From Rhizobium sp. Q54 (GTDB lineage Bacteria; Pseudomonadota; Alphaproteobacteria; UBA7879; VGCX01): a DNA stretch of 64,000 nt. Location: contig CAMBTM010000004.1 of assembly GCA_945870825.1 (NCBI GenBank), positions 2,594 to 66,593 of the forward strand, written 5' to 3'. Below the pieces are notes generated by a model. It worked only from the letters and a program-made list of their open reading frames with translations, made no database searches and was not told the origin of the DNA. A program made the translations under genes and the position numbers. How positions within the stretch are numbered: the first letter of the stretch is position 1; each line of letters begins with the position of its first letter. Of this stretch, positions 121 through 49,855 are shown in pieces.

Positions 121-1872
121 ATGTATTGTATCATCCAGCATTCTTTAAAGAATTTGGCCCCTATTACGTGGGGAAAAGTATCTTCGCTTTACGAAAAGGT
201 CTTGATTGTCGGCGTCTTTTTCATGCTTCCTTTGATTACCAGTGCGTCGTTAAGGGATAGTTACACGGTGATCAAATGGAAACTGGTCCATGTTTTTGCC
301 ATTCTTGCCTTGTTTCAACTTCTGTTTATGCATAAAAAACTCATTCTCCCTAATCTTGGAAGGCCATTTACCCTAATATTTCTAGGGATTATAGGTCTTT
401 GGGGGTGGGAATACTATTTTCACCAGATTCCTTTTTTCTCTGCAGTAACGTTGGATCGTGCGGCTTTTGTCGGCCTTGTCCTCTTTTTCTATAAAAATTT
501 TAAAGATACCCCAAGGACACTTGATTTTGTGTGTCATAGCGTGATGGCCTCCATGGTTATTTTTGCAGTTCTTGTTTTTAAACAAGGCATGCTCACCCCT
601 CAAGAACTCTTTGCTTATGACCTTCCCATCGCCGTTCGTTCAAAAATACAGCTTACTTTTGGCAACGAAAACATGGCGGCACAATTTATAAGTGTCTCAT
701 TTCTTTGTATTTTTCGAGAAATCTTTGTCAGAAAAACCCTTTGGATCAAAATACTTTGTGGGTTTTTTGGGGTGCTTACGGCCCTATTTCTTTTGAAAAC
801 GGGTTGTCGTTCTGCCTTGTTGGGGGTCTCTATGGGGGCTGCCTTTTATGGGGCTATGCAGGTGAGGTCACCTTATCGCGGATATTTCTTGAAGGGTGGA
901 TTCATATTGGGGATTTGTCTTTTGACCCTTTTTGTGGGGGTTCGTACACGTACCGTCCAACATCGCCAAGAAATGTGGACGAATGCCATTCAAATGGTGA
1001 AAGATTATCCTTTCGGGGTTGGGCGTGAACGGTTTAATTTTTATCATGTCCTTTACCAAAGTCCTCATCAAATCCAGCCTCGTTTTGAAGGACTTATTGA
1101 AAGAACACCCCATAACGAGGCGTTGAAATACCTGGTGGAAGAGGGGTGGATATTTCTGGGGCTTGTCATATTGATGCTGGTATTACTATTGAAAACACAT
1201 GGCAGTTTCTTATTAAAAACCCTTAGGAAGGAGGAAAGACTTCAATGGATAGGGGGCCTTTTCTTTGTTCTGGGCTCTGAATTTTCTTTCCAATTCCCCT
1301 TTGAGATAGCCTTTCCTTACCTCATGGTTGCGTATTTTTTTGGGTATATCCTTTCCGTCATTCCAAAAGAACAGAAGGTATCTTTGCCCCTTGTCGTGAC
1401 TATTCCTGGATTTTTTCTGTTTGTTACCGCAACGGCGTTTTTGTTTGTGGCAAATTTGGGCCATGGCAGCAAACGGTTTGATTCTTTCTTTACAAAGTTG
1501 GGGTGTCGAATTGCGCCTTACGAGTGGCGGACGTGCGATCAGTACGTCAAAACCCTTGAAGAAGAAGAGAAATGGTGGAAAATCCTCCCCGAATGTTTGG
1601 ATCAGTTAGAACGAAGACCCTATAACTTCACAAGTCTTGTTCAGCTGGGCCGTGCGTATTTCATGGAAAAAGATCTTAAGAATTCTTGCAAGGTGGCCTG
1701 GTTTTATGACAGACTTTTTGATCATCAAAGCCATCTTAAAGGATTTGTAACAAATGTATGTCCTCGGTCTGATCAGGAACACTATCTTAATCTTTCTCTC
1801 AAAGATCATTATCGGGGTGTATTTGATCACTTGTCAGAAGCCCACCAAAAAAGGCTTTTACGGCGGGTTTAA
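121..1872 (+). CDS. Polytopic membrane protein, O-antigen ligase (Wzy_C)-like, with C-terminal soluble TPR-like extension
   Basis: 583-aa ORF. About 12 hydrophobic segments in the first ~400 aa, with a large loop between them as in WaaL/O-antigen ligases. C-terminal ~170 aa hydrophilic and helical. First gene of the polysaccharide locus. Confidence 0.5.
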   Translation: MYCIIQHSLKNLAPITWGKVSSLYEKVLIVGVFFMLPLITSASLRDSYTVIKWKLVHVFAILALFQLLFMHKKLILPNLGRPFTLIFLGIIGLWGWEYYFHQIPFFSAVTLDRAAFVGLVLFFYKNFKDTPRTLDFVCHSVMASMVIFAVLVFKQGMLTPQELFAYDLPIAVRSKIQLTFGNENMAAQFISVSFLCIFREIFVRKTLWIKILCGFFGVLTALFLLKTGCRSALLGVSMGAAFYGAMQVRSPYRGYFLKGGFILGICLLTLFVGVRTRTVQHRQEMWTNAIQMVKDYPFGVGRERFNFYHVLYQSPHQIQPRFEGLIERTPHNEALKYLVEEGWIFLGLVILMLVLLLKTHGSFLLKTLRKEERLQWIGGLFFVLGSEFSFQFPFEIAFPYLMVAYFFGYILSVIPKEQKVSLPLVVTIPGFFLFVTATAFLFVANLGHGSKRFDSFFTKLGCRIAPYEWRTCDQYVKTLEEEEKWWKILPECLDQLERRPYNFTSLVQLGRAYFMEKDLKNSCKVAWFYDRLFDHQSHLKGFVTNVCPRSDQEHYLNLSLKDHYRGVFDHLSEAHQKRLLRRV

Positions 1873-1899
1873 TAGGAGGCCCCAGTTTTAAAGCCCCCC

Positions 1900-1928
1900 T
1901 TGACAATCATTCTTCCACACATTAAGTT
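1900..1928 (+). promoter_or_regulatory. Candidate sigma70-like promoter (TTGACA ... TAAGTT) upstream of regulator gene
   Basis: Perfect -35 hexamer TTGACA at 1900-1905. The -10 element is weak and 15-17 nt downstream. Lies in the 82-bp gap before the ORF at 1955. Confidence 0.2.
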
Positions 1929-1954
1929 CTGTTCATGAACATAATGTTGGAGTA

Positions 1955-2545
1955 ATGCAACTTAAAATGGCGGCTTTTCAAGATACACGGGAACAGACGG
2001 AACAAAAAGTGATGGTTCATCTCTTGAGTGAGATCGACAAAAATCCTTCGTTTACTCAACGGCATCTGGCAAGCGAGCTTGGGATTGCTTTGGGGTTAAT
2101 GAACCATTATTTGAAGCGGTCTGTTACGAAAGGATGGCTTAGGGCTTCCCAGGTGTCTCCTCGCCGTATTACGTATTTTTTAACGCCTGAAGGATTTCTT
2201 GAAAAAGGCCGCATGGTGAAGGATTACCTTGCCCGTTCTATGACATTTTTCCGAGATGCTCGGTCCCAATGTACCGACATTTTTGACCGCTGTAAGACCA
2301 ACGGATGGCATCAGGTGGCCTTAGTCGGGGAGGGGGATCTTGCCGATATTGCCCGCCTTGTGGCACTCAGTGTTGGTGTTGAAGTTTTTGTGATGGATTC
2401 AAAGGCTGATTTTAAAGACGTTCAGGCTATCCTTGTGACGGATGTTCTTAATCCTCAGGGTGTTTATGATGCGTTGAGAAAGAAAAAAGATCTGCCACCG
2501 ATCATTTTGCTGCCATTGCTCCATATATCAACGAGGGCCTTATGA
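1955..2545 (+). CDS. Winged-helix transcriptional regulator with C-terminal Rossmann/CoA-binding-like domain
   Basis: N-terminal wHTH-like segment (PSFTQRHLASELGIALGLMNHYLKRSV). C-terminal part resembles the CoA-binding-like N-domains of polysaccharide glycosylphosphotransferases (HQVALVGEGDLADIARLV...). Its stop overlaps the next start. Confidence 0.5.
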   Translation: MQLKMAAFQDTREQTEQKVMVHLLSEIDKNPSFTQRHLASELGIALGLMNHYLKRSVTKGWLRASQVSPRRITYFLTPEGFLEKGRMVKDYLARSMTFFRDARSQCTDIFDRCKTNGWHQVALVGEGDLADIARLVALSVGVEVFVMDSKADFKDVQAILVTDVLNPQGVYDALRKKKDLPPIILLPLLHISTRAL

Positions 2546-3051
2546 GTGCGTTGACGTGGTCTGTTGTTTATACCCAAGCGTTAAAAGAGGGGGTGGCAGC
2601 TCAAAACCTGAAAGATCAAGGGTTTGAGGTTTATTTGCCTCGGTTTAAAAAGCTCCGTCGGCATGCCAGAAAAGTTGACGAGGTGTTGGCCCCCTTGTTT
2701 CCCCGCTATGTTTTTATTGGGATGGATCGGGAAATAGCCCAGTGGCGCAGCATCAAAGGGACGAGGGGTGTTTCCCATTTGTTGATGACCGATGACCGGC
2801 ATCCAGCCGTTGTGCCGAGTCTTATTATTGAATCTTTGAAGGCCCAAGAGGTCAGCGCAGGGGTTGTTCCCGTTGAAACGCTGATTGTTTTCCAAAAAGG
2901 TGAAAAGCTTCGGATTCTGGAGGGCGCGTTTAAGGACCATGTGGCGACCTTTGAAGGCCTTGATGATAAGGCACGGGTTGAACTTTTATTGACGTTTTTG
3001 GGTCGAGAGACAAAGATTGCCCTTCCCCATTATGGGGTGGAAGTCGCCTAA
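2542..3051 (+). CDS. NusG/RfaH-family transcription antitermination paralog (NGN + KOW domains)
   Basis: 169 aa, the size of a specialised NusG paralog. NGN-like N-domain (EVYLPRF...PLFPRYVFIG). C-terminal KOW motif GEKLRILEGAFKDHVATF. Sits at the head of a >29-kb same-strand locus. Confidence 0.75.
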   Translation: MSALTWSVVYTQALKEGVAAQNLKDQGFEVYLPRFKKLRRHARKVDEVLAPLFPRYVFIGMDREIAQWRSIKGTRGVSHLLMTDDRHPAVVPSLIIESLKAQEVSAGVVPVETLIVFQKGEKLRILEGAFKDHVATFEGLDDKARVELLLTFLGRETKIALPHYGVEVA

Positions 3052-3135
3052 AAATAGTTTTTTTATGCCCTTCCTTAGGGGGGGTGTTTGTTGATATAAG
3101 AATGAATCCAGTTTGGGAGGAATTTTCACCCAGAC

Positions 3136-3147
3136 TGCGGCAGCATG
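3136..3147 (+). promoter_or_regulatory. ops-like element (TGCGGCAGCATG vs E. coli ops GGCGGTAGCGTG) in operon leader
   Basis: Matches ops at 9 of 12 positions. Located in the non-coding leader between the NusG paralog and the first biosynthetic gene. Weak: the key T6 position is not conserved. Confidence 0.2.
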
Positions 3148-3168
3148 GGGAAAATTTAGGGATAGTTT

Positions 3169-4125
3169 ATGATAAAATGGTTTAAAAGGTTTATTATTGG
3201 AATCTTGGTTCTCGTTGGTTTTGGGGTGATATCTTTTCATCAACCCTTTTTAAATCAACATGTATTAAAGCCCTTATGGATTCCTATGATTCCTTATGTT
3301 CAATCGGCTATCATTCGTTTTTACATAGAGCCTTTCAATGATGGGGCGTCTGTTGATGCTGACCATGTAATATCGACCATGGATAACGGGATGCCAATTG
3401 TTGTGAATAAGCATGATCGGTGTGTTTGTTGGTCTATAAGATTTAGGGGTCTTTGGGATTCCAGTGAAATGGCGGTTATTAAAAATCTTATTAAGCCTGG
3501 ATTTAAAATCATTGAAGCAGGTGCCAATTTTGGAGTTCATACTTTATCCATGGCAAAAATCGTTGGTGAAAACGGCCATGTCTATGCTTTTGAAGCTAAT
3601 CCTCATGTATCGAAATATCTTAAACAATCGATTTTTGATTTGAATCATTTAACCAATGTGACCCTTTATGAAAAAGGTTTGGGAGACCAAGCCAAAAGCC
3701 TCTTTTTAAATTTTGGTCTTGCAAACATTGGTGGTGGAACGTTGGCCAATGAAGACTCTGGTACTTCTGTTAAAACAGAGATTGTACGTCTGGACGATGC
3801 ATTAAAAGATATCAAAGTAGATATGCTAAAAATGGATACAGAAGGATACGAGGGAAAAATCCTTGAAGGGGCCCAGGATATTTTGAAAAATAATCCAGAC
3901 ATGATCATCATGATGGAATGGTCTCAAGATGCCCTTCGTGCCCAGGGAAGTGATCCAAAGAGTATTTTAGAGAATTTAGCTTCCCATGGATTTGATAAAA
4001 TATGGAAAATTGGCGAACGTCGGAGCAAAGAGGAAGGGACGCTTTTTCCTTTGACCATGGAAGAAGTTTTGAATATTCCGTACTGTGATCTTGTGTTGTC
4101 ACGCCGGGATTTGAATGTGCAATAA
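3169..4125 (+). CDS. FkbM-family SAM-dependent methyltransferase
   Basis: N-terminal TM anchor, then an FkbM-type motif IEAGANFGVHTLSMAKIVGENGHVYAFEANP. Confidence 0.75.
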   Translation: MIKWFKRFIIGILVLVGFGVISFHQPFLNQHVLKPLWIPMIPYVQSAIIRFYIEPFNDGASVDADHVISTMDNGMPIVVNKHDRCVCWSIRFRGLWDSSEMAVIKNLIKPGFKIIEAGANFGVHTLSMAKIVGENGHVYAFEANPHVSKYLKQSIFDLNHLTNVTLYEKGLGDQAKSLFLNFGLANIGGGTLANEDSGTSVKTEIVRLDDALKDIKVDMLKMDTEGYEGKILEGAQDILKNNPDMIIMMEWSQDALRAQGSDPKSILENLASHGFDKIWKIGERRSKEEGTLFPLTMEEVLNIPYCDLVLSRRDLNVQ

Positions 4126-5064
4126 TTGATGAAGAATTTTTTAAAAAAAATCTTTAAATCCCATCTGTATTTGAATGTCTTTTTTTATATCTTTAATAAG
4201 ATTTTAAGTAAAATCCGCCTTTCTTTTGGTATCATCGAGAGTAGTTCTGGTACGACCCATGCGGCGTTGCCCTTGAAAGAGTCTTTGGCCTATATTGAAG
4301 GGGTTTTTGAAGATTACTGCCGAGTTTCAGGGCGCAAGACCTTTCAAGGGAAACTTGCTGAACTGGGGCCAGGGGACAATGATGGTGTGGCCTTGATGTT
4401 TTTGGCTCATGGGGCAACACAGGCGCATTTAGCCGATCGGTTTTATTCCAAACGAGATCGTTTAAATCACCAAAAAATTTATGAAGCTTTGGGGGAAAAA
4501 TATCCAAAGACTTTGACGGGTGTGAAGAATGTTCGACGTTTTTATGGGGCGGAGGCTGCCGGCGAGACGTTTTTCCAGCAAAATAAGGGGTATGATTATA
4601 TTGTTTCCCGGTCTGTTTTGGAACATGTGGATAATCCAGAAATTGTCTTAAAAAATATGATTGAGGCCTTAAACCCAGGGGGTCTATTGATTCATAAGGT
4701 TGATTTGCGGGATCATGGTATGTACACGCCTTTTTCTGACCCCTTAAAATTTTTGGAAGTCCCCACATGGCTTTATGGTCTGATGACCCAAGGGACAGGG
4801 TATCCCAATCGGTTTTTATTTCATCGGTATAAGGATATATTGATAAAACTTAATCCCAAGACCCAATTTTATGTCGCTGGTCTCTATGGTGTATCCGACT
4901 TAGTGCAAGCGTACCCCTTAGATAAGATTCCGCTAAACCTTAAAAAGAAAGCTGTTGCTTATGTTAATAAATACCGTCACCACTTTGCCCATGAATTTTC
5001 CGACATATCTGCAGAGTATTTGATGGTGTCGAGTTTCTTTTTTGTTTGTGAGAAGGCTGCATGA
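4126..5064 (+). CDS. Class I SAM-dependent methyltransferase
   Basis: Glycine-rich motif-I-like LAELGPGDNDGV and VSRSVLEHVDNPE...LNPGGLLI (Methyltransf_11/12-like). Confidence 0.55.
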   Translation: MMKNFLKKIFKSHLYLNVFFYIFNKILSKIRLSFGIIESSSGTTHAALPLKESLAYIEGVFEDYCRVSGRKTFQGKLAELGPGDNDGVALMFLAHGATQAHLADRFYSKRDRLNHQKIYEALGEKYPKTLTGVKNVRRFYGAEAAGETFFQQNKGYDYIVSRSVLEHVDNPEIVLKNMIEALNPGGLLIHKVDLRDHGMYTPFSDPLKFLEVPTWLYGLMTQGTGYPNRFLFHRYKDILIKLNPKTQFYVAGLYGVSDLVQAYPLDKIPLNLKKKAVAYVNKYRHHFAHEFSDISAEYLMVSSFFFVCEKAA

Positions 5065-6812
5065 GTAGTCCCTCTATCTTTTCAGCCATTCAAAAGATCC
5101 GCGATCTTTTAACCCGGGAAGAGAAATTTCGTTGGCTTGGGATCGCGGGGTTCGCCCTTTGTTCATCTTTGTTGGAAGTGCTGACAGCAACGTTGATCGT
5201 TGTTTTTGCCCAGGTCTTGAATCAACCAGAAACAGGACAGCGGTATTTAGCCAAACTCGGCTTTATGGAGATTTTACCCCCGGGCCGCTTAGTCTTTTAT
5301 ATGGCCCTTTTGGTTGGTGCTGTATATCTCTTTAAGAACATTGTTTCAGCGTGTGAGGCCTTTTATCAAAACTTTTCCATCCAAAAGATGAATTATCATT
5401 TTAAGAATAAATTGCTTCATCGGTATGCGGAGGCGGAGTACGGGTTTTATTTGACCAGAAATTCGTCTTTGGGCATGGCTGTTGTGGGTGGAGATGCTGA
5501 ATCGATGTTTTCGGGTGGTATGTTGGCGTTAGGATCGATTCTTTCTGAGGGGGTTATTTTCGTTCTTTTGATCGCCATGGTGGTTGCCATGAATCCGTCT
5601 TTGGCATTTTCTATATTTGGAATTGGGTTGGTGTTAGGGGTGATTGTATCTAAAGGGCTGCTTCCACGGTTTTATGTCTTTGGTCAACGGCTTCAAGAAG
5701 CGTCTCTTCATACAAGTCAAAACCTCCTTCAGTTCTTTCATGCGTTTAAAGAAATCATTCTTCTTGGAAAGCGTGAAGCTTTTGTGGACGCCTATAAGTA
5801 TTACTCGTTAAAAAAATCCCGGGTTCAGGCCTTGCAGACAGCCACCAACCTTTTGCCCCGTATGGTGATTGAAGTGGTCTTTATGGGACTTTTTGTTGCA
5901 ACTATTGCCTTTCTTTGTTTGGAACATGAAAGTCCTATTCAGATGATGGGAATTTTGGGGGGATACCTTTATACGGGGTTTCGTCTCATGCCAGGACTGA
6001 ACCGTATGATTAGTCAAATCAACACATTTAAATCAACGATTCCATCGATTGAACGGGTCCACAAAGAATATTTAAGCGTTGCGACGAAAGAGAGTTATGA
6101 AGAGGCGCCAGGGCTTACTTTTCAAAAATCCATTACTTTCGAAGATGTCGATTTCCGGTACCTGCACACCAAAAAAAACGCCTTAAATCATATTTCATTT
6201 TCTATTCAAAAAGGCGAATGTATTGGGATTGTAGGGGAGACAGGGTCTGGAAAATCAACATTGGTGGATTTAGTTCTGGGCCTTTTGCACCCCTCTTCCG
6301 GATCTATTGTGGTGGACGACAAATTTCCTGTCAATTCTTACCAGTGGCATCAAAAAATTGGGTATGTACCCCAGAGTATTTATCTGACAGATGACACCAT
6401 TGAGGCCAATATTGCCTTTGGTGAAAAAGAAATTGATGACGTACGGTTGAATGCAGCCATGGATGCGGCGCAATTGCGTAAATTTATTACTCATCTTCCA
6501 GAAGGTTCCAAGACTGTTGTGGGGGAACGGGGGATTCGCTTATCAGGGGGGGAGCGCCAGCGTATCGCTATTGCGCGGGCCTTGTACCGGAACCCTGAGG
6601 TCTTGATCTTTGACGAGGCGACGTCAGCGTTGGATAATGAAACAGAAGCAGCCTTGATGGAAACAATCCATAAGGTAAGTCAAGCTCGCACCGTCATCAT
6701 GATCGCCCACCGATTGACGACCTTGAAGGACTGTGACCGGATTGTGGTCATGGAGGGGGGGCATTTGAAATCTCTCATTGATTATGAAACATTGAATGCA
6801 CAGCGTATATAG
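5061..6812 (+). CDS. Fused ABC transporter permease/ATP-binding protein (exporter type, MsbA/Wzm-Wzt-like)
   Basis: N-terminal 6-TM domain. Walker A GETGSGKST, signature LSGGERQR, Walker B LIFDEATSALD. Confidence 0.85.
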   Translation: MSSPSIFSAIQKIRDLLTREEKFRWLGIAGFALCSSLLEVLTATLIVVFAQVLNQPETGQRYLAKLGFMEILPPGRLVFYMALLVGAVYLFKNIVSACEAFYQNFSIQKMNYHFKNKLLHRYAEAEYGFYLTRNSSLGMAVVGGDAESMFSGGMLALGSILSEGVIFVLLIAMVVAMNPSLAFSIFGIGLVLGVIVSKGLLPRFYVFGQRLQEASLHTSQNLLQFFHAFKEIILLGKREAFVDAYKYYSLKKSRVQALQTATNLLPRMVIEVVFMGLFVATIAFLCLEHESPIQMMGILGGYLYTGFRLMPGLNRMISQINTFKSTIPSIERVHKEYLSVATKESYEEAPGLTFQKSITFEDVDFRYLHTKKNALNHISFSIQKGECIGIVGETGSGKSTLVDLVLGLLHPSSGSIVVDDKFPVNSYQWHQKIGYVPQSIYLTDDTIEANIAFGEKEIDDVRLNAAMDAAQLRKFITHLPEGSKTVVGERGIRLSGGERQRIAIARALYRNPEVLIFDEATSALDNETEAALMETIHKVSQARTVIMIAHRLTTLKDCDRIVVMEGGHLKSLIDYETLNAQRI

Positions 6813-8988
<2,176 letters not shown>

Positions 8989-8992
<4 letters not shown>

Positions 8993-9615: not shown

Positions 9616-9624
9616 GCTATTCCA

Positions 9625-12507: not shown

Positions 12508-12525
12508 TAGGTAGGGAGAATAAAA

Positions 12526-13191: not shown

Positions 13192-13195
13192 GAGA

Positions 13196-19384: not shown

Positions 19385-19385
19385 A

Positions 19386-21503: not shown

Positions 21504-22336
21504 TAAAGAAAATTATTAAAGATTTACTTGCGAATACTGCTCAAAAATTAGTTAGGTTTTGTGTGAATAAGGGGTGCATGACACAAGATGATGTCATTGA
21601 AAAATTAAGTGAGTATGTTGATGTTCCAACAAAACATGGAGTGATAAAGTTTTTTTGTCCTGGCCAAATTCCTATTTGGAGAGCAAATACATTTTTTGAT
21701 TTAGAGCCTGAAACCTTAGCATGGGTGGATTCTTTTGAAACGGATACTGTTTTTTTCGATATTGGTGCTAATGTGGGTTTATACAGCCTTTATGCTGGAA
21801 TGAAGGGGCATGAAGTCTTGTCTTTTGAGCCCTATAGTGCAAATCAATATATTTTAAACAAGAATATATATATTAATAAACTTGATCATAGAATTACAGC
21901 GTTATCTGCTGCAATCTCAGATAAGTTTCAATTTTCTAAATTTTACATGCAAAATATGCAGTTTGGTTCGGCAGAAAATACAACAGGAAAAGCTGTGGAC
22001 TGGAAAGAAGAAAAATTTATTCCAAAATTTCAACAAGGGATTATGGAATATTCTTTAGATCAGCTTTTAAATATTCAAAAGATGCCGTTCCCAAATTATA
22101 TAAAGATAGATGTTGATGGGGTTGAAGATCAAATATTGCTGGGTGCTCGTGAAACTTTAAAGGATATTAGAGTGAAGCAAGTTCTTATTGAGCTGGATGA
22201 AAAACACTCAATGCACGACTGGTGTGTAAAATTTATGGGGGAAAGTGGTTTTGTATTAGATGTTAAAGAACAAAGTGATGTATTTGCACAAGGTACATAC
22301 AAAAATATGTATAACTACATATTTTCAAGAAAATAA
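21500..22336 (+). CDS. FkbM-family methyltransferase
   Basis: FFDIGANVGLYSLYAGMKGHEVLSFEP motif. Confidence 0.7.
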   Translation: MIKKIIKDLLANTAQKLVRFCVNKGCMTQDDVIEKLSEYVDVPTKHGVIKFFCPGQIPIWRANTFFDLEPETLAWVDSFETDTVFFDIGANVGLYSLYAGMKGHEVLSFEPYSANQYILNKNIYINKLDHRITALSAAISDKFQFSKFYMQNMQFGSAENTTGKAVDWKEEKFIPKFQQGIMEYSLDQLLNIQKMPFPNYIKIDVDGVEDQILLGARETLKDIRVKQVLIELDEKHSMHDWCVKFMGESGFVLDVKEQSDVFAQGTYKNMYNYIFSRK

Positions 22337-22348
22337 TAAACCATCTTT

Positions 22349-24139: not shown

Positions 24140-24141
24140 AA

Positions 24142-25215
24142 ATGTTTTTAAAGAAAAAAAGTTATTTAAGAGCTATACAGCGTATTAGAATTCCAGAAAC
24201 ACGTGATTTAGTCCATGGATTAAGACTAGATCGCAATGAGAGGGTTGCCGATTGGCCTGACAACTTTATGGCAGAGGTTCTTTCTTCAAAACATGCCTCT
24301 TTCTTTAGTACCTATCCCGATCTTTCAGGGCTTTATAAGAAATTATCTTCCCATTTAAATGTTAAACAGTCCCAAGTTCTTGTATCATCTGGTATTGATG
24401 GTGTTATTAAAACTCTCTTTGAAATACTGGTGAATCCAGGTGAAAAAATTGGCGTATTTGCACCAACTTACGCCATGTACGACGTTTATGCAAAGTTATT
24501 TCAATCTGAGATGGTTCATGTGGGTTATAAGGAAAATTATGAGCCAAATTGGGATTCTTTTGAGGCATTTTTAAAGCAAGATCCCATTATTCTGTTCTTA
24601 CCTAATCCAAATCAACCAATAGAATCCTGCTTTTCTTTGGAAGAATTAAGACTTATTGCAAAGAAATGCTTGGACATTGGATGTCTATTTGTTGTGGATG
24701 AAGCCTATCACTATTTTGGTGCAGAATCTGCACTTCCTTTGATAAATGAATTTGAAAATGTTGTTGTTATGAGGACTTTTTCAAAAGCCTTTGGTATTCC
24801 CTCTGCACGTCTTGGATATATGGTCTCAACAGAAGAGAATATGGAACTCCTTTCTAAAACACGTCTTGCTCACGAAGCAAACGCATTAAGTGCTGCTATG
24901 GCTGAGTACCTTTTAGATAATTTTGATATTGTAAAGGATTATGCCAATCAAATTAATCAAGCACGGGCTTATGTTAAGAAGGAGCTATTAGAATTGGGTG
25001 TTCATGCAAGGGGAGAGAAGGGAAACTATCTTTTGATTCCACTTGCATCCAGTTTGCAAACAAAAAATTGCGTAGCATCCTTGAGAGAGCAAAAAATTTA
25101 TGTGAAAGGCCCATGGAACGCTCCCTGGGATAATTGCATCACTATAACGCTAGGGCCTAAAGACCTTATGGAACGTTTTATAGAGTCCATAAAAGAATTT
25201 ATGAGGCACGCATGA
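24142..25215 (+). CDS. Class I/II PLP-dependent aminotransferase (HisC/CobD-like)
   Basis: FSKAFGIPSARLGY lysine motif typical of histidinol-phosphate aminotransferase-like enzymes. Confidence 0.65.
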   Translation: MFLKKKSYLRAIQRIRIPETRDLVHGLRLDRNERVADWPDNFMAEVLSSKHASFFSTYPDLSGLYKKLSSHLNVKQSQVLVSSGIDGVIKTLFEILVNPGEKIGVFAPTYAMYDVYAKLFQSEMVHVGYKENYEPNWDSFEAFLKQDPIILFLPNPNQPIESCFSLEELRLIAKKCLDIGCLFVVDEAYHYFGAESALPLINEFENVVVMRTFSKAFGIPSARLGYMVSTEENMELLSKTRLAHEANALSAAMAEYLLDNFDIVKDYANQINQARAYVKKELLELGVHARGEKGNYLLIPLASSLQTKNCVASLREQKIYVKGPWNAPWDNCITITLGPKDLMERFIESIKEFMRHA

Positions 25216-26150
25216 AAATTCTTGTTACAGGTGGAATGGGGTATATAGGAAGTAACCTTATCAAACGGTTAGAGAAAGATAATCATGCAATAACAATTCT
25301 TGATAATCTTTCCACAAGTCTTAAGGGGGGCCAAACTCAGCATGAATTAGTTTGTGCGGATATTACAAACTATGAATTACTTAAAGCATCTTTTGAGGGA
25401 AGAGTATTTGATGTTGTTTTGCATCTCGCTGCGCAATCTTCAGGCCCAGCTTCTTTTAAAGATCCAGAGCTTGATTTAAGAATTAATATTCTTGGAACCT
25501 TAAATATTATTCGGTTATGTGATCATCTTAAAATACCAAGAATTCTGTTTGCGTCCTCATTTACTGTTTACGGTGATAATCTTACACATGAAATGCTTAG
25601 TGAATCTTTACCCTGTGAACCAAAATCTCTTTATGGGGTTGGTAAATTAACGGGAGAACAGTATCTTAAAGTGTACGCCGAAAAGCTTGGTATCTCTTGG
25701 AATGCTCTACGCATGTTCAACGTTTATGGACCAGGGCAAGATTTATCTAGAAAAGATCAAGGGATTGTCAGCATTTTTCTGGGGTATGTGAGAGAAGGGG
25801 ACTATATTCCACTACAAGGAAAAGTAGAGAGATTTAGGGACTTAGTTTATATCGATGATGTGGTATCAGCGTGGGTTTTATGTCTCGAAAAAAATATTCC
25901 TAACCAAATTTTTAATGTTGGATCGGGATCTAAAACAACTATCAAAGAGTTGATCGAGTCAATCGCTGATTTACATAAAAAAAACGTTACCATTGAGGTT
26001 GTTGGATCCACTCCTGGCGATATTATGGGGTGCTATGCAGACATCTCTAAGTCTCGAGATCTCTTAGGATATAATCCTCAGTACCAACTAAAATCTGGAT
26101 TAGCTCATTTCAAAAATTGGGCGGATCAGACCTTTGGAGAAGTAGTATGA
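25212..26150 (+). CDS. NAD-dependent sugar epimerase/dehydratase (GalE-like)
   Basis: MKILVTGGMGYIGSNL and YGVGKLTGE (YxxxK). Confidence 0.75.
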   Translation: MKILVTGGMGYIGSNLIKRLEKDNHAITILDNLSTSLKGGQTQHELVCADITNYELLKASFEGRVFDVVLHLAAQSSGPASFKDPELDLRINILGTLNIIRLCDHLKIPRILFASSFTVYGDNLTHEMLSESLPCEPKSLYGVGKLTGEQYLKVYAEKLGISWNALRMFNVYGPGQDLSRKDQGIVSIFLGYVREGDYIPLQGKVERFRDLVYIDDVVSAWVLCLEKNIPNQIFNVGSGSKTTIKELIESIADLHKKNVTIEVVGSTPGDIMGCYADISKSRDLLGYNPQYQLKSGLAHFKNWADQTFGEVV

Positions 26151-27115
26151 GCACTCTATGTTGGTTGTGCAATCAAGAAACTCTTTCAAAATCCGTACAG
26201 TTGCGTTCTAAAAAAGAAGCGCTTATTCAGTATTGTGGGTCATGTCATTTTGAATTTTTTTCTCATGAAAACAAATCATTGCTTATAGGAGATCAGCTCG
26301 ATAAGACACGGCTGCAGTCAGCTGGGTTAGATATTCCAAAACAGGAAAAGGATTTTGAAAATGGGTATAAGCAATCCCAGTCTTATATTCAGGAATATTT
26401 GACGAAAGAAGATATTGGGAAAAATATATTAGAAATAGGATGCTCTTGGGGATATTTTTTAAAAGCAGTGAGAGAGTTTGGCGCAGTTCCTTACGGCGTT
26501 GAAATTAATCCAGTTAGAGCTAGTTATGTGGCAGAGAACTTGAACATAAGATGTGAGGCTGATATTGAAAAGTACCATTCTTCTGCGATTAAGTTTAAAA
26601 AAATATTCTCTTTTTACTGCTTAGAATACATAAAAAATCCAATAGATTTTTTTAAACGCCTATTCGATCTTCTTGAAGATGGCGGTGAGATGATTTTTAT
26701 CACACCCAATTTAGATGATGTGTTAAAGGATATTTGGAAGAATAAAGGCTATCAGGATTTTTTCTACGATGAGTGTGCTATCGCTTATTACTCTTCTCAA
26801 GCAGTAAAATCTTTGGTCCACGTTCTTAAAAAAGAGCACGATGATCTTAAGGAGACAATTTATACGCAACAAGGGTATAGTTTCTATAACCATCTTCATT
26901 GGTACTTCAATCAAAAACCAATTAACAATAACAGTCTGGTTGGAGGTGATCACTTGTCTGAAGATCTTCGACAAGTTTTTGGTGCAAAGAAAGATAAGAT
27001 AAGCTTAGAGCTTGTGAAAATTATTGATGATTTTGATGTCCAATACAGAAAAGTGATAGAAGGAAATGATCTGGGTAATCAGATTATTATGAGGATTCAG
27101 AAGAATGACTTATAA
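26147..27115 (+). CDS. SAM-dependent methyltransferase with N-terminal CxxC...CxxC zinc ribbon
   Basis: CWLCNQ...CGSCHF zinc-ribbon-like motif, then ILEIGCSWGYF motif I. Confidence 0.5.
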   Translation: MSTLCWLCNQETLSKSVQLRSKKEALIQYCGSCHFEFFSHENKSLLIGDQLDKTRLQSAGLDIPKQEKDFENGYKQSQSYIQEYLTKEDIGKNILEIGCSWGYFLKAVREFGAVPYGVEINPVRASYVAENLNIRCEADIEKYHSSAIKFKKIFSFYCLEYIKNPIDFFKRLFDLLEDGGEMIFITPNLDDVLKDIWKNKGYQDFFYDECAIAYYSSQAVKSLVHVLKKEHDDLKETIYTQQGYSFYNHLHWYFNQKPINNNSLVGGDHLSEDLRQVFGAKKDKISLELVKIIDDFDVQYRKVIEGNDLGNQIIMRIQKNDL

Positions 27116-27935
27116 TACAAAAATATGGAAAGAAAACGAAGATAAATATCAAGAACATTGGGAGGATAAAGGCATTGGAGGTGTTTTTAACGATATAGAT
27201 ACCAATGCATTTTCTGGACTAGAAAAATATATTAATGAAGAAGGTTTCTTGAAAGATTTTGAAAAATGCCTTCATGCACTCAGTGGTTTAGGAAAAAAAA
27301 TACATGGAAAGGGTGCAGATTTAGCCTGTGGAAGCATGTGGTTAACTTCATATGTTGTCAATAAATTTGAAAAAGTATTAGATACAGTTTATTCCGTTGA
27401 TTTTTCTAGAAAGAATATTTTTAACCTTGGACAAAAATTGCTCACCCACTACAAAGTCAATCCAGAAAAATTATTCCTGTGTCTAGGATCTTTTTATGAC
27501 ATTAAGCTACCTTCAGAAAGTTTAGATTTTGTGGTGATGTCTCAAGCTTTCCATCATGCCGATGATCCAGATAAGTTCTTGCAAGAAGCTAGTCGTGTAT
27601 TAAAAAAAGAGGGTTTTTTGATAATGATTGGAGAGCTCTATATCAAGAAACGGCTTTATCTAAAATGTTATCTTAATTACTTGATGGCATGTGTCGTATC
27701 GTCAAAATATTTTCCGAGCTTTCTAGTTCAATCTATTGAAAAGCTTAAAAAAATGAAAGAAAGAGACTTGAGAGGATCTTTCCAAGCGTTATATTTCCCG
27801 CCAGACCCACAAATGGGTGATCACTACCATTTGAAGTCACAGTATGAAGGATTTTTCTCAAGGAATAAGTTTAATTTTGTGCATATTAAATCAACACAAT
27901 CTAATCATTTAGCATACGTACTTTATAAATCATGA
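27105..27935 (+). CDS. Class I SAM-dependent methyltransferase
   Basis: ADLACGSMW motif I and the acidic loop FVVMSQAFHHADDP. Confidence 0.5.
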   Translation: MTYNTKIWKENEDKYQEHWEDKGIGGVFNDIDTNAFSGLEKYINEEGFLKDFEKCLHALSGLGKKIHGKGADLACGSMWLTSYVVNKFEKVLDTVYSVDFSRKNIFNLGQKLLTHYKVNPEKLFLCLGSFYDIKLPSESLDFVVMSQAFHHADDPDKFLQEASRVLKKEGFLIMIGELYIKKRLYLKCYLNYLMACVVSSKYFPSFLVQSIEKLKKMKERDLRGSFQALYFPPDPQMGDHYHLKSQYEGFFSRNKFNFVHIKSTQSNHLAYVLYKS

Positions 27936-28789
27936 AGAACACTAATCCTTTGGTGACAATCGTTATAGCAACTTATAGAAGAAAGTTTTTTCTTTCTAAG
28001 ACGATTGCTTCTGTTTTGTCTCAAACTTATTCTAATTTAGAAGTCATTGTAGTGAATGATGACAAAGAAGATTCTCTCCAAGAATTAATAGATTCTTTTG
28101 GAGATTTTCGGCTACATCTTTTTGAAATCGATCATTCTGGAAGACCTGCGGTTCCAAGAAATTTTGGAGCCCGAAAGGCTTCTGGAGAGCTTATAGCGTT
28201 CTGTGATGATGATGATATTTGGTTTCCCAAAAAAATAGAGGAACAAGTAAAGGTTTTTGATCTTCATCCTGACGTTAAATTATGTTACACAGACTATGTA
28301 TTGATGGATGAAAATGATAAAAAAATAGCTCATGTAAAAGTAGAGAGTTCTAAAAAAATTACAAATTTTAGAAGACATTTGTTTAAAAATGACATTACGT
28401 TTTCAACGATTATGGTTTGTAGACGGGTGTTTTTAGATGGCCTGTGGTTTGATGAAAGACCAATTCTGAAGGCATCAGAGGATTATCTATTTTTGAGCCA
28501 TCTTTTGTATCTGTATCCTGTCTTTTTTATTGAGAGTTCTCTTGTGCAATATCGTATACACCTCGGTGGAATTAGTTATTCTTACAATAATGCAAGAAAA
28601 ATTTTTCGCTATTATGTTCGTATTGTAATATGTTTTTATGACTTACTGAAGAATAGAAGAATATCTTTTGTAGAATTTATCTCTTTTGCTAAATTTCATT
28701 TAGTATATAGTATAAAGCAAATTTTATTTCCTTATTATAGCAAAATCAAGACAATATTGGAGGAAAAGTGTCTAAAAAAAGAGTATTAG
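27932..28789 (+). CDS. Family 2 glycosyltransferase
   Basis: [26 protein letters not shown]...VVNDD and DDD motifs typical of GT2. Confidence 0.75.
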
Positions 28790-29706
28790 TTACAGGGGGG
28801 GCCGGATTTATAGGATCCCATTTGTGCCGTAAGCTTTTGGAGAAAGGGTGCGATGTTTTATGTATTGATAATTTTTTTACAGGACGAAAAGAAAACATAG
28901 CTGAATTGTTCTCTAATCCTTATTTTGAATTCATCCGTCATGATATTATTGAACCCATAAATCTTGAAGTAGATGAGATTTATAATTTGGCCTGTCCAGC
29001 GAGCCCAATTTATTATCAGTCGGATCCAGTACAAACGGTTAAGGCAAATGTTCTTGGAGCTATTAACACACTAGAGATTGCAAAGCGGACAGGCGCTAAG
29101 ATTTTGCAAGCTTCAACGAGCGAGGTTTATGGGGACCCTGAACACGATGTTCAATCTGAATCCTACTGGGGAAATGTCAATCCTATAGGCATAAGAAGTT
29201 GTTATGATGAAGGAAAACGGTGTGCGGAAACTCTATTCTTTGACTATTTTAGAGAATACGATGTCAAAATAAGAGTTGCCCGAATTTTTAATACATATGG
29301 TCCTTATATGAGGCCTGATGATGGTCGTGTTGTGAGTAATTTCATTGTTCAAGCATTGACTAATAATAAAATAACGCTTTATGGAACTGGTCAGCAAATA
29401 AGGAGTTTTTGCTTCATTTCTGATTTGATTGATGGGTTAATAAGGCTTATGGAAAATGATATCGCTTTGCACACACCTGTTAATCTTGGAAATCCTACGC
29501 CAATAAATATGAAATCCCTTGCAGAGACTGTTTCTGGCCTTGTTGGAAAAACGATAGACGTAGAATATCTGCCCCTTCCTCAAGATGATCCTAAAAAGAG
29601 ACAACCAGATATTTCTCTTGCAAAAAAGTTTCTAGATTGGCAGCCAAAAATCTCTTTAGAACAAGGATTAATTCAGACAATCAATTATTTTAAGACTATT
29701 GTTTAA
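28768..29706 (+). CDS. UDP-glucuronate decarboxylase (UDP-xylose synthase)-family SDR
   Basis: [18 protein letters not shown]...[11 protein letters not shown] is the diagnostic UXS/ArnA-C motif. YDEGKRCAE catalytic YxxxK. Confidence 0.8.
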
Positions 29707-29715
29707 AATTTCCCC

Positions 29716-30816
29716 ATGCATCTCACCCTCGTCATCTCATCCCTAAACCCCGGTGGGGCGGAGAGGGTCTTATCGAACCTCGCAAATTATTGGGTATCGA
29801 AAGGACACCAAGTATCTCTTATTACCTTCGCGTCACCCACCGCCCTTCCTTTCTACTCCCTTGATCCTAAAATTAACCTTATTCAACTGGGTCAAACCCA
29901 CTCTGAATCCAATTTATTCAAACGTGTTATCAATAGCCTCAAACGTATTCTTACCTTACGCAAAACACTCCAAAAATTAAAGCCCGATCGTATTATTTCC
30001 TTTGTGGACGTGACGAATATAACAACTCTCATGGCGTCCTTTTGGCTCAAAACTCCGGTCATTGTGTCGGAGAGGACCCATCCGGGGCACTATAAAATTC
30101 CAGGGCTTTATAATGTGTTGCGACGGTGGGTGTATCCAAAGGCAACTTGTGTTGTTGTTCAAACTCAAGGGGCCGCAGATTATTTTAAGGATCTGAAAAA
30201 CCTAGAGATTATTCCAAATGCGGTGCCTCTGCCAGCCTGCACAAAAGACCATCATACCATTAAGCACATCATTTCTCTGGGGCGTCTTTGTCCTTTTAAA
30301 GGGTTTGACACCCTCATCCATTCCTTTTCCCACCTCCTCAGAACCCATCCCCACCTCACACTTACCATTTATGGCGAAGGGGCGGAACGCCCCCGTCTTG
30401 AATCCCTTATCAGATCCCTCAACCTTCAAAGCAAAATCCATCTCCCTGGCACCACACCCAATGTCCAAGAGGCCCTTCTCAACGCCGATCTTTTTATCTT
30501 CCCGTCTCACTATGAAGGATTTCCCAATGCCCTGTGCGAGGCCATGGCGGTTGGACTTCCTGTTATTGCCTCCAACTGTTCAGGGACGATTGATATTATA
30601 AGGGATACTATCGATGGGCGGCTTTTCCCCATTGGTGATGGGGATGCTTTAACAAAAATCGCTCTTGAATTATTAAACGATCCCGTGCAATGTCAACGCC
30701 TGGGCCAGCAGGCGAAAGAAGTGACAACGCGCTTTAGTCCGGACCGTATTTTCGCCCTCTGGGACAAAGTTTTGGGAAATAACGTTTTGGGGCATAAGAT
30801 TTTAGAGAAAAAATGA
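29716..30816 (+). CDS. Family 4 glycosyltransferase (GT-B, retaining)
   Basis: EGFPNALCEAMAVGLPVIAS (the EX7E region of GT4). Confidence 0.75.
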   Translation: MHLTLVISSLNPGGAERVLSNLANYWVSKGHQVSLITFASPTALPFYSLDPKINLIQLGQTHSESNLFKRVINSLKRILTLRKTLQKLKPDRIISFVDVTNITTLMASFWLKTPVIVSERTHPGHYKIPGLYNVLRRWVYPKATCVVVQTQGAADYFKDLKNLEIIPNAVPLPACTKDHHTIKHIISLGRLCPFKGFDTLIHSFSHLLRTHPHLTLTIYGEGAERPRLESLIRSLNLQSKIHLPGTTPNVQEALLNADLFIFPSHYEGFPNALCEAMAVGLPVIASNCSGTIDIIRDTIDGRLFPIGDGDALTKIALELLNDPVQCQRLGQQAKEVTTRFSPDRIFALWDKVLGNNVLGHKILEKK

Positions 30817-31745
30817 TAACAAACGGCATTCATCATCGTTCCCAAATCACCAAAGACCTTAAGCTTAAGGATTTTTTTGGCGTTGATAAAAGGATTTCCA
30901 TCACCCTTTATGATCAAATCTTGGATTTGCCTAATGCAGAGGATTTAGCAGAGCGGATTCTGCTTTTGTTTTCTGACGAACGGGGAGCCTACAAACGGAC
31001 CTACAGAAAACGGTTTGAGGAATTTGATAAAGTTGTTCTAACCCTTATTGAGAAAAATTTAAAAGGGCCCTTATTATTCCAAGATGTTGGAATTAGTGAC
31101 GGAAGAACTGCGGCCGATTTTTTTGAAAAAGGGGCCCAACTTTTTCAAAAAATAATTTACACAGCTTCTGACTATAATCCCAAAGTCTACGTCATCGAAA
31201 AAAGAACTGTCAAAACGACCCTGAGTCAGACGGGGAAAGTTTTAGAAATCGTGTGGCCACCCTTTGTTTTCAACCTCAGTCGGCCAGATCGTTATTATCC
31301 TTTGAATACCGTGATTCGCTGGTTCATCCAATTTTTCAAAGTCAATCCTCTTATAGCCGCCTACAAAGCTGGCAAGGTCAAAGCAAAAGAACTGCTCTTG
31401 TTTTGTCCTGCTGCTTTGAATCTGGCTAAAAAAGATCCTCGTTTTATTCTTGAACAACACGACCTTTTAAAGCCCTTTAAAGAACAAAGTCATATCATCC
31501 GGGCTATGAATGTCTTAAATACCACGTATTTTTCAAAGCCAGAATTTGAAAAGGTGATTACCTATATCCATGACGGACTTTTAGCAAATGGTCTTTTCAT
31601 CACAGGGTCCAACCAAGATGCAGGTTCCCTTGTTCATGGCGGCGTCTATCAAAAGACAACGCAAGGATTTGAAAAACTCTGGCAGTCAGGGGAGGGGTCT
31701 CCCATTGACGAGATGATAATGGATTTTTCTAAAACGTCCCATTGA
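30813..31745 (+). CDS. Hypothetical protein, last gene of the locus
   Basis: 310-aa ORF with ATGA overlap to the GT4 gene. No motif I can assign; QDVGISDGRTA is weakly methyltransferase-like. Confidence 0.35.
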   Translation: MITNGIHHRSQITKDLKLKDFFGVDKRISITLYDQILDLPNAEDLAERILLLFSDERGAYKRTYRKRFEEFDKVVLTLIEKNLKGPLLFQDVGISDGRTAADFFEKGAQLFQKIIYTASDYNPKVYVIEKRTVKTTLSQTGKVLEIVWPPFVFNLSRPDRYYPLNTVIRWFIQFFKVNPLIAAYKAGKVKAKELLLFCPAALNLAKKDPRFILEQHDLLKPFKEQSHIIRAMNVLNTTYFSKPEFEKVITYIHDGLLANGLFITGSNQDAGSLVHGGVYQKTTQGFEKLWQSGEGSPIDEMIMDFSKTSH

Positions 31746-33174: not shown

Positions 33175-33213
33175 AATCCCCATCATACCTAAGCTGTGAT
33201 GGGGATTTTTTTA
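33175..33213 (+). terminator. Rho-independent terminator for the MFS gene
   Basis: Perfect 11-bp stem AATCCCCATCA/TGATGGGGATT with an 11-nt loop, followed by TTTTTTT. Overlaps the stop of the convergent CAP10 gene. Confidence 0.65.
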
Positions 33214-49133: not shown

Positions 49134-49216
49134 GATAAGTGTCTTTAGAATTAATCTAACCCACTCTATCCGATTTTAGAAAGAGGTACAATGAGAAGAG
49201 AGAAAAATATTTTTTT

Positions 49217-49851: not shown

Positions 49852-49855
49852 ATCC

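Follow-up and report, generated by a model that had tools for sequence, protein, structure and literature searches.

A surface-polysaccharide locus in Rhizobium sp. Q54 appears to carry its own antitermination system. The locus lies in a 64,000-nt stretch of contig CAMBTM010000004.1 (GenBank assembly GCA_945870825.1, positions 2,594 to 66,593), which was analyzed as a whole and is referred to as the window. Near the head of the locus, a marR-like and an rfaH-like gene are followed by a leader hairpin and by an element resembling ops, the loading site of RfaH in E. coli. Our preferred reading, to which we assign a probability of roughly two in three, is that this marR-rfaH-ops arrangement makes the locus a self-driven antitermination operon with a processive transcript over 3169-31745. 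Long operons in themselves are ordinary for surface-glycan loci, and a single long transcript would be explained by the presence of an RfaH-like protein and a loading site at the head of the gene string. Two parts of the locus seem worth following up: the cis-wired RfaH module with its conserved ops core and pause-type hairpin, and a portable gene cassette with HpcH- and KdsB-like enzymes. Coordinates of the individual features are compiled in Table 1.

The open reading frame (ORF) listing with refined starts contains 33 intact ORFs between positions 121 and 31745, all on the + strand. Start codons were refined by upstream context, domain boundaries and orthologous gene calls. Overlaps were found at 20 of the 32 gene junctions, 11 of them being of the 4-nt ATGA type, and a further 10 junctions have gaps of 0-18 nt. 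The two larger gaps, 94 nt (1873-1966) and 117 nt (3052-3168), flank the marR-rfaH pair on either side. Coding density reaches 99.1% over 121-31745 and 99.8% over 3169-31745, where 30 genes with 19 overlaps at 29 junctions leave no intergenic space longer than 18 nt. No competing long ORF backed by a family match was found on the - strand across 121-31745. The other ~30 kb of the window, which served as control, contain ~24 ORFs with ~7 strand switches, a longest same-strand run of 7 and gaps typically of tens to hundreds of nt, 40-700 nt being common. Overlapping start and stop codons together with a gene order kept across distant contigs indicate that the arrangement is under selection. A patchwork of pseudogenes was rejected, because every ORF is intact and the Pfam and NCBIfam matches span their profiles almost fully (PseB 2-323 of 324, PseC 1-378 of 380, WbqC 1-217 of 218, the KdsB-like enzyme 1-241 of 243).

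Closely packed genes may also form a supra-operon with several internal promoters, in which RfaH and ops act on the first few genes only or elsewhere in the genome. The regulators, the Pse block, the low-GC cassette, and the GT4 gene with the gene of the 310-aa protein are examples of units that such a structure could comprise. The locus is a compositional mosaic, and this fits the supra-operon: the GC content of third codon positions (GC3) is 0.24-0.40 for the genes in 9625-29706 versus 0.33-0.52 for the flanking genes, with jumps near PseG and between the short-chain dehydrogenase/reductase (SDR) gene SDR3 and the GT4 gene. Likewise, other contigs carry the cassette as one block, and the region contains about 100 sigma-70-like matches; the scan was for sigma-70-like sequences only, and promoters inside coding sequence are possible. 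These matches, however, are no commoner than in shuffled sequence (52 vs. 48.4+/-6.1 and 53 vs. 52.4+/-6.5), and the counts of terminator-like sequences in the string likewise stay at shuffle level (16 vs. 13.9+/-4.5 and 16 vs. 14.5+/-3.4). No strong terminator lies inside the string, and the two best + strand terminator-like structures (3065-3087 and 33175-33207) are both located outside the structural genes. The tight junctions described above, and a sister locus that keeps the same string directly behind rfaH/ops, also speak against internal units. We therefore consider the supra-operon unlikely, though it is the strongest of the competing explanations.

An earlier note on this DNA, made from the sequence alone, had described about 35 genes on one strand with tight junctions, many of them ATGA overlaps, and had taken this to imply translational coupling and very long transcripts, one or a few in number. 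Strand and junctions were borne out, while the gene count came down to 33. The antitermination cassette at the head, the chance level of internal signals and the sister locus lend weight to the long transcript. The boundaries at 121 and 31745, in contrast, had to be revised: judged from the sequence, the transcription unit likely begins at the marR promoter (~1900) and ends at 31745 or 33207. The comparison with related genomes that had been proposed there returned the same architecture in the sister locus (GCA_964402405.1) and a collinear cassette in other contigs. Loci of this size had been called rare in reduced host-associated genomes; an equivalent of 25.5 kb exists in at least one related metagenome-assembled genome.

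The marR and rfaH genes overlap by ATGA. In comparisons with NCBIfam models the RfaH-like protein scored 115 bits for RfaH, 66 for UpxY, 63 for NusG and 45 for LoaP. Its best match in the PDB is E. coli RfaH (59.7 bits), NusG reaching ~37 bits. The 809 homologs that we collected bear mostly the name RfaH and stem from Holosporales and other Alphaproteobacteria; the closest belong to Holosporales and other alphaproteobacterial metagenome-assembled genomes (MAGs), Holospora and Odyssella. Judged by its nearest RfaH, MarR and ABC homologs, the source is an uncultured alphaproteobacterium of Holosporales-like type. Among the residues that contact ops in E. coli, Q24 (= Q26) and R73 (= R75) are kept, and the equivalents of I93 (= I96), F130 (= F137) and R138 are conserved. 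The longest ORF of marR starts at 1955, but the likely start is 1967 (MAAFQ...), as in the gene call of the related locus L001. TIGR04176 is the best NCBIfam match of the MarR-like protein, at 59.2 bits and thereby below its cut-off of 88. A Rossmann-like C-terminal extension of ~90 aa (residues ~110-190) with the motif VALVGEGDLA could be a domain that senses a nucleotide or nucleotide-sugar ligand.

Upstream of marR, a TTGAC[AG] -35 element is conserved in related loci. An inverted repeat of the form GTTC-N7-GAAC overlaps the -10 element and the expected transcription start in the window. In 56 of 60 related loci, 1-3 copies of this palindrome occur between -250 and +60 of marR, where they overlap or flank the -35 element; 0.006 copies are expected per 310 nt of background. 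This operator is presumed to be the binding site of the MarR-like protein. Operators that cover the -10 element and the start are classical for MarR-type dimers controlling their own gene, from which we infer that the MarR-like protein represses its own promoter. The Wzy_C gene lies upstream of this promoter, and neither the terminator scan nor reading of the sequence revealed a terminator between the two. Downstream, only 47-60 nt separate the rfaH stop from ops in many relatives. This is too short for a separate promoter, so that read-through from the marR promoter is the simplest model for transcription of the genes behind ops.

The ops-like element and the operator were revealed by comparative k-mer analysis of locus flanks. 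In the window, the leader hairpin begins 59 nt past the rfaH stop, and the ops-like element on the non-template strand ends 21 nt before the first structural gene (3169). Nascent hairpins stabilize his-type pauses at a spacing of ~10 nt, and the 3'-end of the leader hairpin is located ~10 nt upstream of the predicted pause base. The window sequence TGCGGCAGCATG matches the E. coli ops consensus GGCGGTAGCGTG (PMC5995543, PMC11880322) at 9 of 12 positions, and agreement rises to 11 of 12 for the family consensus tGCGGTAGCgTG. E. coli RNA polymerase pauses at U11 of ops (PMC5995543).

For comparison, 79 related loci were obtained from a scan of GTDB species genomes with the RfaH alignment, and their neighboring genes were determined by tblastn with the window proteins. 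In 71 of the 79 loci, the gene directly preceding rfaH is a marR homolog, and the two mostly overlap by 4 nt. In 64 of the 79, an ops-like GCGG[T/C]AG follows 24-102 nt past the rfaH stop (47-102 nt in all but one). The downstream pattern reads GGGTGA-loop-TCACCCGGACT-GCGGTAGC-(G/A)TGG, with GCGGTAGC(G)TG as its summary form. CACC and GCGG.AGC do not vary among 63 distinct copies; the latter corresponds to ops positions 2-5 and 7-9, so that position 6 (T or C) is the sole variable core position. The C3:G8 pair and the G4-A7 loop bases are conserved. In E. coli, substitution of G4, G5, A7 or G8 abolishes RfaH recruitment and substitution of C3 reduces it, while T6 is among the more tolerant positions, T6A lowering recruitment ~3-fold (PMC5995543). 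The C6 variant of the window is shared with nine other loci, mostly the closest, Holosporales-like relatives. Covariation of position 6 with RfaH residues, the top candidate being R at the R73 equivalent, was set aside because it is confounded by clade.

The hairpin is conserved as well. In 61 of 63 members, no more than 0-4 nt separate the end of its minimum free energy (MFE) fold from the ops-like element, and compensatory changes are seen: position -2 is G-C in 28 and C-G in 12 members, positions -4/-5 carry C-G, U-G, U-A and G-C pairs, and many G-U pairs occur. When hairpin arms were swapped with those of members that differ distally, the own arms paired better in 56 of 63 cases (Wilcoxon p = 2e-10). 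Covariation and arm swaps support the view that the hairpin is a structure selected at the RNA level. The composite motif CACC[CT]-N3-7-GCGG[TC]AGC occurs 71 times in 1.57 Mb, with an estimated chance expectation of ~1, and 65 occurrences follow rfaH on its own strand at a distance of at most 200 nt; of the others, one follows the second rfaH gene in locus L006 and one follows rfaH in the sister locus. L006 (10001-12430) contains two rfaH copies ~1.9 kb apart, each with its own hairpin and ops. The window holds exactly one site of this composite motif. The shorter TGCGGCAGC was found four times in the window versus 0.36 expected from shuffles. Its extra copies at 46659, 48712 (- strand) and 51498 were rejected as loading sites, as they are located inside ORFs and have neither hairpin nor CACC; they probably reflect codon usage (GCG-GCA-GC). 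A search of the window for the E. coli ops 8-mer GGCGGTAG with at most one mismatch gave 22 matches versus 17.7 expected, i.e. nothing meaningful.

The marR-rfaH-hairpin-ops module is present in Holosporales-like, Rhodospirillales-like, Bradyrhizobium and Hyphomicrobiales genomes. Same-strand genes after rfaH in the related loci are sugar-nucleotide, Pse/NeuB and transferase genes. In nine of the closest, Holosporales-like relatives (including L002, L004, L005, L008, L009 and L011-L013), the ABC exporter is the next conserved gene, with 60-72% identity. Homologs of the GT4 and 310-aa proteins adjoin rfaH in L007, L011 and L014 with 49-60% identity, and no Wzy_C homolog was found next to rfaH in the 79 loci. 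In L010, L014, L015 and L017 (Holospora undulata, Legionella-labelled MAGs, Fluviispira), rfaH has no adjacent marR, and the 400 nt downstream of it contain no ops-like element, so that part of the family is without the cassette.

The sister locus (L085; GCA_964402405.1, contig CAYOCE010000001.1) extends over ~25.5 kb on one strand up to a convergent tRNA synthetase gene. Its RfaH is 63% identical to that of the window, and it has the same hairpin and the C6 ops. It carries genes for PseB, PseF, PseG, NeuB, a GNAT acetyltransferase, PseC, a methyltransferase, WbqC, a PIG-L deacetylase and a 611-aa protein as well as the same cassette. At sequence level, this comparison shows an architecture that is conserved and not unique to one genome, together with a swapping of modification genes that is typical of O-antigen-like loci. 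In the region 9787-10576 of the sister locus, marR is absent while promoter and operator (GTTCATGAAC) are kept. The RfaH ORF there starts with the MarR-like MAIFQNT, which looks like an in-frame deletion fusing the marR start to rfaH.

Several observations weigh against an antitermination operon of this kind. With 115 bits, the RfaH-like protein falls short of the TIGR01955 equivalog cut-off of 144.5, and three of the E. coli ops-contact residues are replaced (K10 by Q12, H20 by N22, R23 by D25). The equivalent of E48, a residue of autoinhibition, is alanine (A50), and an AlphaFold2 (AF2) model from a 25-sequence alignment (pLDDT 74.5) gives the KOW domain as a beta-barrel, not as the autoinhibited alpha-hairpin. 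The ops-like element of the window deviates from ops at positions 1, 6 (C for T) and 10 (A). Directly after the rfaH stop and ahead of ops, the stem-loop at 3065-3087 could be a weak attenuator stopping part of the transcription before the loading site is reached. The GC skew of the mRNA strand is +0.05 to +0.21 over 1-30 kb; a G-rich, C-poor mRNA is the opposite of typical Rho loading sites, and an anti-Rho activity may not be needed. Regarding the glycan, no initiating phosphoglycosyltransferase (Bac_transf or MraY-type) was found among the scanned window ORFs (121-61551). The sugars and the final acceptor named here are predictions, and we grade the sugar chemistry below the regulatory model.

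Some of these points would also fit a different role of the hairpin and GCGGYAGC in the leader, for instance in RNA stabilization or processing, as a binding site of the MarR-like or another protein, or as a small RNA; the likeness to ops would then be coincidental or reflect a generic pause. The G-U pairs and compensatory changes speak for an RNA-level structure, which E. coli ops does not need, and the deviating ops positions and replaced contact residues point in the same direction. In addition, Rfam gave no match for the window, the leader or a canonical GGCGGTAGCGTGG relative, the JUMPstart model RF01707 matching neither at gathering score nor at E<=10; this model has been described for gamma-Proteobacteria (PMC2864571). 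The leader hairpin of L056 (10545-10571) has a non-significant match to Atu_C7 (RF02501; 11.9 bits, E=2.1), and the Agrobacterium sRNA Atu_C7 might be a leader fragment with the same hairpin. We nevertheless regard another leader element as improbable, for the invariant bases coincide with those essential for RfaH recruitment in E. coli and the variable base with a tolerant one, the element is tied to rfaH even where a second rfaH copy occurs, and a palindrome of its own, conserved separately, serves as the MarR-type operator. Least credible of all, and very improbable, is that no functional unit exists and that replication-strand bias and successive insertions of acquired sugar genes at a hotspot produced the string: the positive GC skew over 1-44 kb, which includes non-locus + strand genes, the nearby dnaA and the compositional mosaic would agree with it, but a strand bias of 70% would give a run of 33 genes with an estimated probability of only ~1e-5, the neighboring 30 kb switch strand repeatedly, start and stop codons overlap, and gene order is conserved across distant contigs.

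For the antitermination operon, we propose the following course of events. The marR promoter would fire upon release of the MarR-like protein, and marR and rfaH would be transcribed and translated from the 5'-end of the transcript. The nascent RNA would then form the hairpin, and polymerase would pause at the ops-like element as in E. coli, the position of the hairpin ~10 nt upstream of the pause base matching the geometry of hairpin-stabilized pauses. The RfaH-like protein may bind a small non-template DNA loop of the paused complex and, once loaded, would exclude NusG and Rho, resist pausing and couple polymerase to ribosomes. One transcript would thereby cover the 30 packed genes (28.6 kb) and may continue through the gene of a major facilitator superfamily (MFS) transporter to the terminator at 33175-33207. 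RfaH rescues 'xenogeneic' targets from silencing by NusG and Rho, and the low GC3 of the cassette fits such targets (PMC7593976). A wider version of this model, in which the module is a portable, self-priming antitermination driver widespread in Alphaproteobacteria, with a hairpin that prolongs the pause, MarR gating the unit and a Holosporales-like C6 ops, and in which the cassette encodes an uncharacterized route to a CMP-activated ulosonic acid, with a class II (HpcH) pyruvate aldolase in place of a KdsA/NeuB-type synthase, is put forward tentatively, our confidence falling a little short of an even chance.

Table 1. Features of the polysaccharide locus and its flanks, with window coordinates.
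Feature	Position	Strand	Evidence
Wzy_C-domain membrane protein, 583 aa, ~11 hydrophobic segments	121-1872	+	Pfam PF04932 43.5 bits; hydropathy scan
Sigma-70-like promoter: TTGACA (1900-1905), 17-nt spacer, TAAGTT (1923-1928)	1900-1928	+	read from sequence
Inverted-repeat operator GTTCtgttcatGAAC (GTTC-N7-GAAC; window form GTTCTGTTCATGAAC)	1926-1940	+	conserved palindrome
MarR-family (EPS-associated type) winged-helix regulator	1967-2545	+	Pfam HTH_24; NCBIfam TIGR04176 MarR_EPS
RfaH-like specialized NusG paralog, 169 aa, NGN + KOW	2542-3051	+	Pfam NusG; NCBIfam; PDB matches
Stem-loop with T-rich interrupted tail, 10 pairs	3065-3087	+	terminator-like scan; RNA fold of 3052-3168
Leader hairpin AGTTTGGGAGGAATTTTCACCCAGACT, 3' arm with family-invariant CACC	3110-3136	+	MFE fold, covariation
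Ops-like element TGCGGCAGCATG, non-template strand	3136-3147	+	comparison with E. coli ops
FkbM-type methyltransferase	3169-4125	+	Pfam; NCBIfam fkbM_fam
Class I S-adenosylmethionine (SAM) methyltransferase	4129-5064	+	Pfam
ATP-binding cassette (ABC) exporter, fused transmembrane and nucleotide-binding domains (TMD-NBD)	5061-6812	+	NCBIfam NF050066 PglK best match, then HepA, MsbA
PseB	6822-7832	+	NCBIfam 494.8 bits (cut-off 407.75)
PseC	7829-8992	+	NCBIfam 485.7 bits (cut-off 423.5)
Cytidylyltransferase, CTP_transf_3, 208 aa	8989-9615	+	Pfam
PseG	9625-10626	+	NCBIfam 222.8 bits (cut-off 153.55)
NeuB-family synthase	10613-11662	+	NeuB 326.5 (cut-off 399.65); PseI 261.9 (cut-off 340.25)
Formyltransferase	11662-12507	+	PRK06988 194.6 bits
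Two methyltransferases	12526-13191, 13196-13789	+	Pfam
WbqC	13790-14476	+	Pfam
PIG-L deacetylase	14469-15143	+	Pfam
612-aa soluble protein	15133-16971	+	no Pfam/NCBIfam match
Low-GC 14-gene cassette	16934-29706	+	Pfam, NCBIfam, collinearity
596-aa GT-B-fold protein (in cassette)	22349-24139	+	AF2 model pLDDT 89.5, pTM 0.90
GT4 glycosyltransferase	29716-30816	+	best matches PglH, PglJ; GC3 0.48
310-aa protein	30813-31745	+	no family match; GC3 0.40
MFS transporter, after 174-nt gap	31920-33158	+	Pfam MFS_1
Strong intrinsic terminator, 13-bp stem + T7	33175-33207		terminator scan

The gene inventory given previously was essentially right, except that the MarR-like and RfaH-like genes at 1955-3051 had been missed. 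The string contains 7 clear SAM methyltransferases and one weak candidate by Pfam and NCBIfam, slightly fewer than the about nine that had been counted, and three ORFs (612, 596 and 310 aa) have no family match. The description of a complex, heavily modified and non-standard glycan is partly supported by our data, with the locus being additionally mosaic. As far as the gene content allows a prediction, the glycan would contain two acidic ulosonic sugars with N-formyl and methyl decorations. According to this model, the glycan would be built up on a lipid carrier through the action of GT2, GT4 and GT-B-fold transferases. Flipping would be the task of the PglK/Wzk-like ABC exporter, and transfer to lipid A-core or proteins that of the Wzy_C protein, a ligase of the O-antigen-ligase/WaaL-like or PglL-like kind. 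The expected products are a formylated pseudaminic-type sugar, a second 3-deoxy-ulosonic acid activated by cytidine monophosphate (CMP), and multiple O-/N-methylations.

The 208-aa cytidylyltransferase, one of two of the CTP_transf_3 type in the string, aligns with no more than the N-terminal portion of the CTP_transf_3/KdsB models and stays below the PseF cut-off; its ortholog in the sister locus is 73% identical. No acetyltransferase domain (PseH/GNAT) was detected among the 33 proteins by the Pfam scan. The formyltransferase occupies the slot after the NeuB-family synthase where the sister locus has its GNAT acetyltransferase. From this PseH position it follows that the 7-N of the pseudaminic-type sugar is probably formylated, which suggests a 7-N-formyl derivative. 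Further downstream, the order methyltransferase-WbqC-PIG-L-large protein recurs in L081 and in the sister locus, whose large protein shares 42% identity with the 612-aa protein. A relationship of the 612-aa protein to the LIC12162 family, to which the L081 protein in the same slot belongs, was rejected since there is no detectable similarity and no NCBIfam or Pfam match, and the 612-aa and 596-aa proteins were rejected as paralogs.

The cassette comprises, in order, an HpcH/HpaI aldolase, a KdsB-like cytidylyltransferase, a 2-hydroxyacid dehydrogenase, an SDR, an HAD hydrolase, a Pgl/NagB-fold protein, an FkbM methyltransferase, the 596-aa protein, a HisC-like (class I/II) aminotransferase, another SDR, two methyltransferases, a GT2 glycosyltransferase and a UXS/dehydratase-like SDR. 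It is collinear in L081-L084 and L086, metagenomic contigs from three other sources, with 42-80% amino acid identity. The KdsB-like enzyme passes the cut-off of subfamily NF009905 (275 vs. 255) and is the only one to do so; neither KdsA nor KdsD of the Kdo pathway is encoded in the locus. By analogy, the HpcH aldolase, the Pgl/NagB-fold protein and the HAD hydrolase appear to stand in the positions of Kdo enzymes. Our hypothesis is that the cassette provides a route to the second CMP-activated 3-deoxy-ulosonic acid, following the isomerase, aldol condensation, phosphatase and CMP-activation steps of Kdo synthesis with non-orthologous enzymes. The 596-aa protein has 13 database homologs, none with a name. 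Its model is nearest to UDP-GlcNAc 2-epimerases and GT-B glycosyltransferases in the PDB (target-normalized TM 0.5-0.6, ~10% identity), so that it may be either a transferase or a NeuC-like hydrolysing epimerase. The 310-aa protein may be a SAM methyltransferase, for which there is a weak CheR hint.

The MFS gene behind the string may close the unit or stand on its own. Between it and a convergent gene lies the only strong terminator downstream of ops. This convergent gene encodes a GT90 (CAP10-like) glycosyltransferase (33189-34298, - strand) and may belong to the same glycan system. Farther away, 15 kb separate dnaA (47769-49133, - strand) from the locus. The 722 nt upstream of dnaA (49134-49855) are non-coding, and the GC skew of the + strand is positive over 1-44 kb and then flattens. 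The window also encodes two BspA-type leucine-rich-repeat proteins (39166-41865 and 42068-43702, + strand) and two tandem Fic-domain proteins (52131-53102 and 53142-54137, - strand), the second of which is fused to a MerR helix-turn-helix (HTH) domain. Such effector-like genes are typical of protist-associated bacteria and would fit such a lifestyle.

If the wider version is true, the recruitment of a cis-encoded RfaH from outside the enterobacteria would be explained for the first time. From the sequences, Alphaproteobacteria appear to share the ops core of E. coli in a different wiring. The module also offers a testable model for the expression of long, horizontally acquired glycan operons, including those of obligate or facultative protist symbionts, and a compact module that may be used to express long heterologous operons. 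The predicted glycan would be relevant to host recognition, and new sugar biochemistry may be found in the conserved HpcH/KdsB-like cassette. In the searchable, incomplete literature we found no description of an alphaproteobacterial marR-rfaH-hairpin-ops cassette and no functional study of RfaH in alphaproteobacterial genera; the 8-mer GCGGTAGC appeared only in primer lists.

Among known glycan systems, the O-antigen route of Helicobacter pylori employs WecA, glycosyltransferases, the ABC flippase Wzk and the ligase WaaL, and the Campylobacter pgl system uses PglH/J and PglK. The PglK-like exporter, the PglH/PglJ-like GT4 and the Wzy_C-family ligase resemble these components, and as in both routes there is no Wzx, no Wzy/Wzz and no Wzm/Wzt pair. 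In contrast to them, the scores remain far below equivalog cut-offs (310 bits for the exporter at a PglK NF050066 cut-off of 1000), and PglB, WecA and PglC are missing from the window. With the pseudaminic acid pathway (PseB, C, H, G, I, F) the locus shares PseB, PseC and PseG above their cut-offs as well as a synthase and a cytidylyltransferase in the same block; it differs in the lack of GNAT/PseH and in a synthase and cytidylyltransferase that fall below the PseI and PseF cut-offs. O-antigens containing Pse5Ac7Fo are known from Pseudomonas aeruginosa O7/O9.

Control of long lipopolysaccharide (LPS), capsule, hemolysin and tra operons by RfaH and ops (JUMPStart) is classical in enterobacteria. 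The window resembles the RfaH system of E. coli and Salmonella in a paralog closer to RfaH than to NusG, an ops core in the non-template strand of the leader, and a long, AT-rich, apparently acquired polysaccharide operon as target. Unlike E. coli RfaH, which acts in trans, the protein is encoded in cis, coupled to a MarR-like gene and upstream of its own loading site; moreover, a covarying RNA-type hairpin abuts the C6-bearing ops, and the protein departs from E. coli RfaH at K10, H20, R23 and E48 as well as in its score below the equivalog cut-off. Cis-encoded NusG paralogs are known as UpxY of Bacteroides (with UpxZ), TaA of Myxococcus and LoaP of Bacillus. As in these systems and in that of the IncX paralog PrfaH, the antiterminator gene heads the long operon that it would serve. 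A second small regulator is paired with it as in UpxY/UpxZ, although the partner here is a MarR-type DNA-binding protein and not UpxZ, and unlike UpxY and LoaP the window protein is RfaH-type by hidden Markov model (HMM) score (115 vs. 66 and 45 bits). The RfaH paralog PrfaH is encoded in cis, shares a transcript with its target and relies on an ops-like site (PMC11880322). That site is located in the promoter region upstream of prfaH, whereas the loading site of the window lies downstream of the antiterminator gene. In the survey of Wang et al. 2020, RfaH cluster CL4 was associated with an HTH regulator and envelope-biogenesis neighbors (PMC7593976). The survey gave no loading site and no promoter or operator, recruitment being known for E. 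coli RfaH only (PMC7593976). Compared by description, the CL4 association and the marR-rfaH cassette are very likely the same thing.

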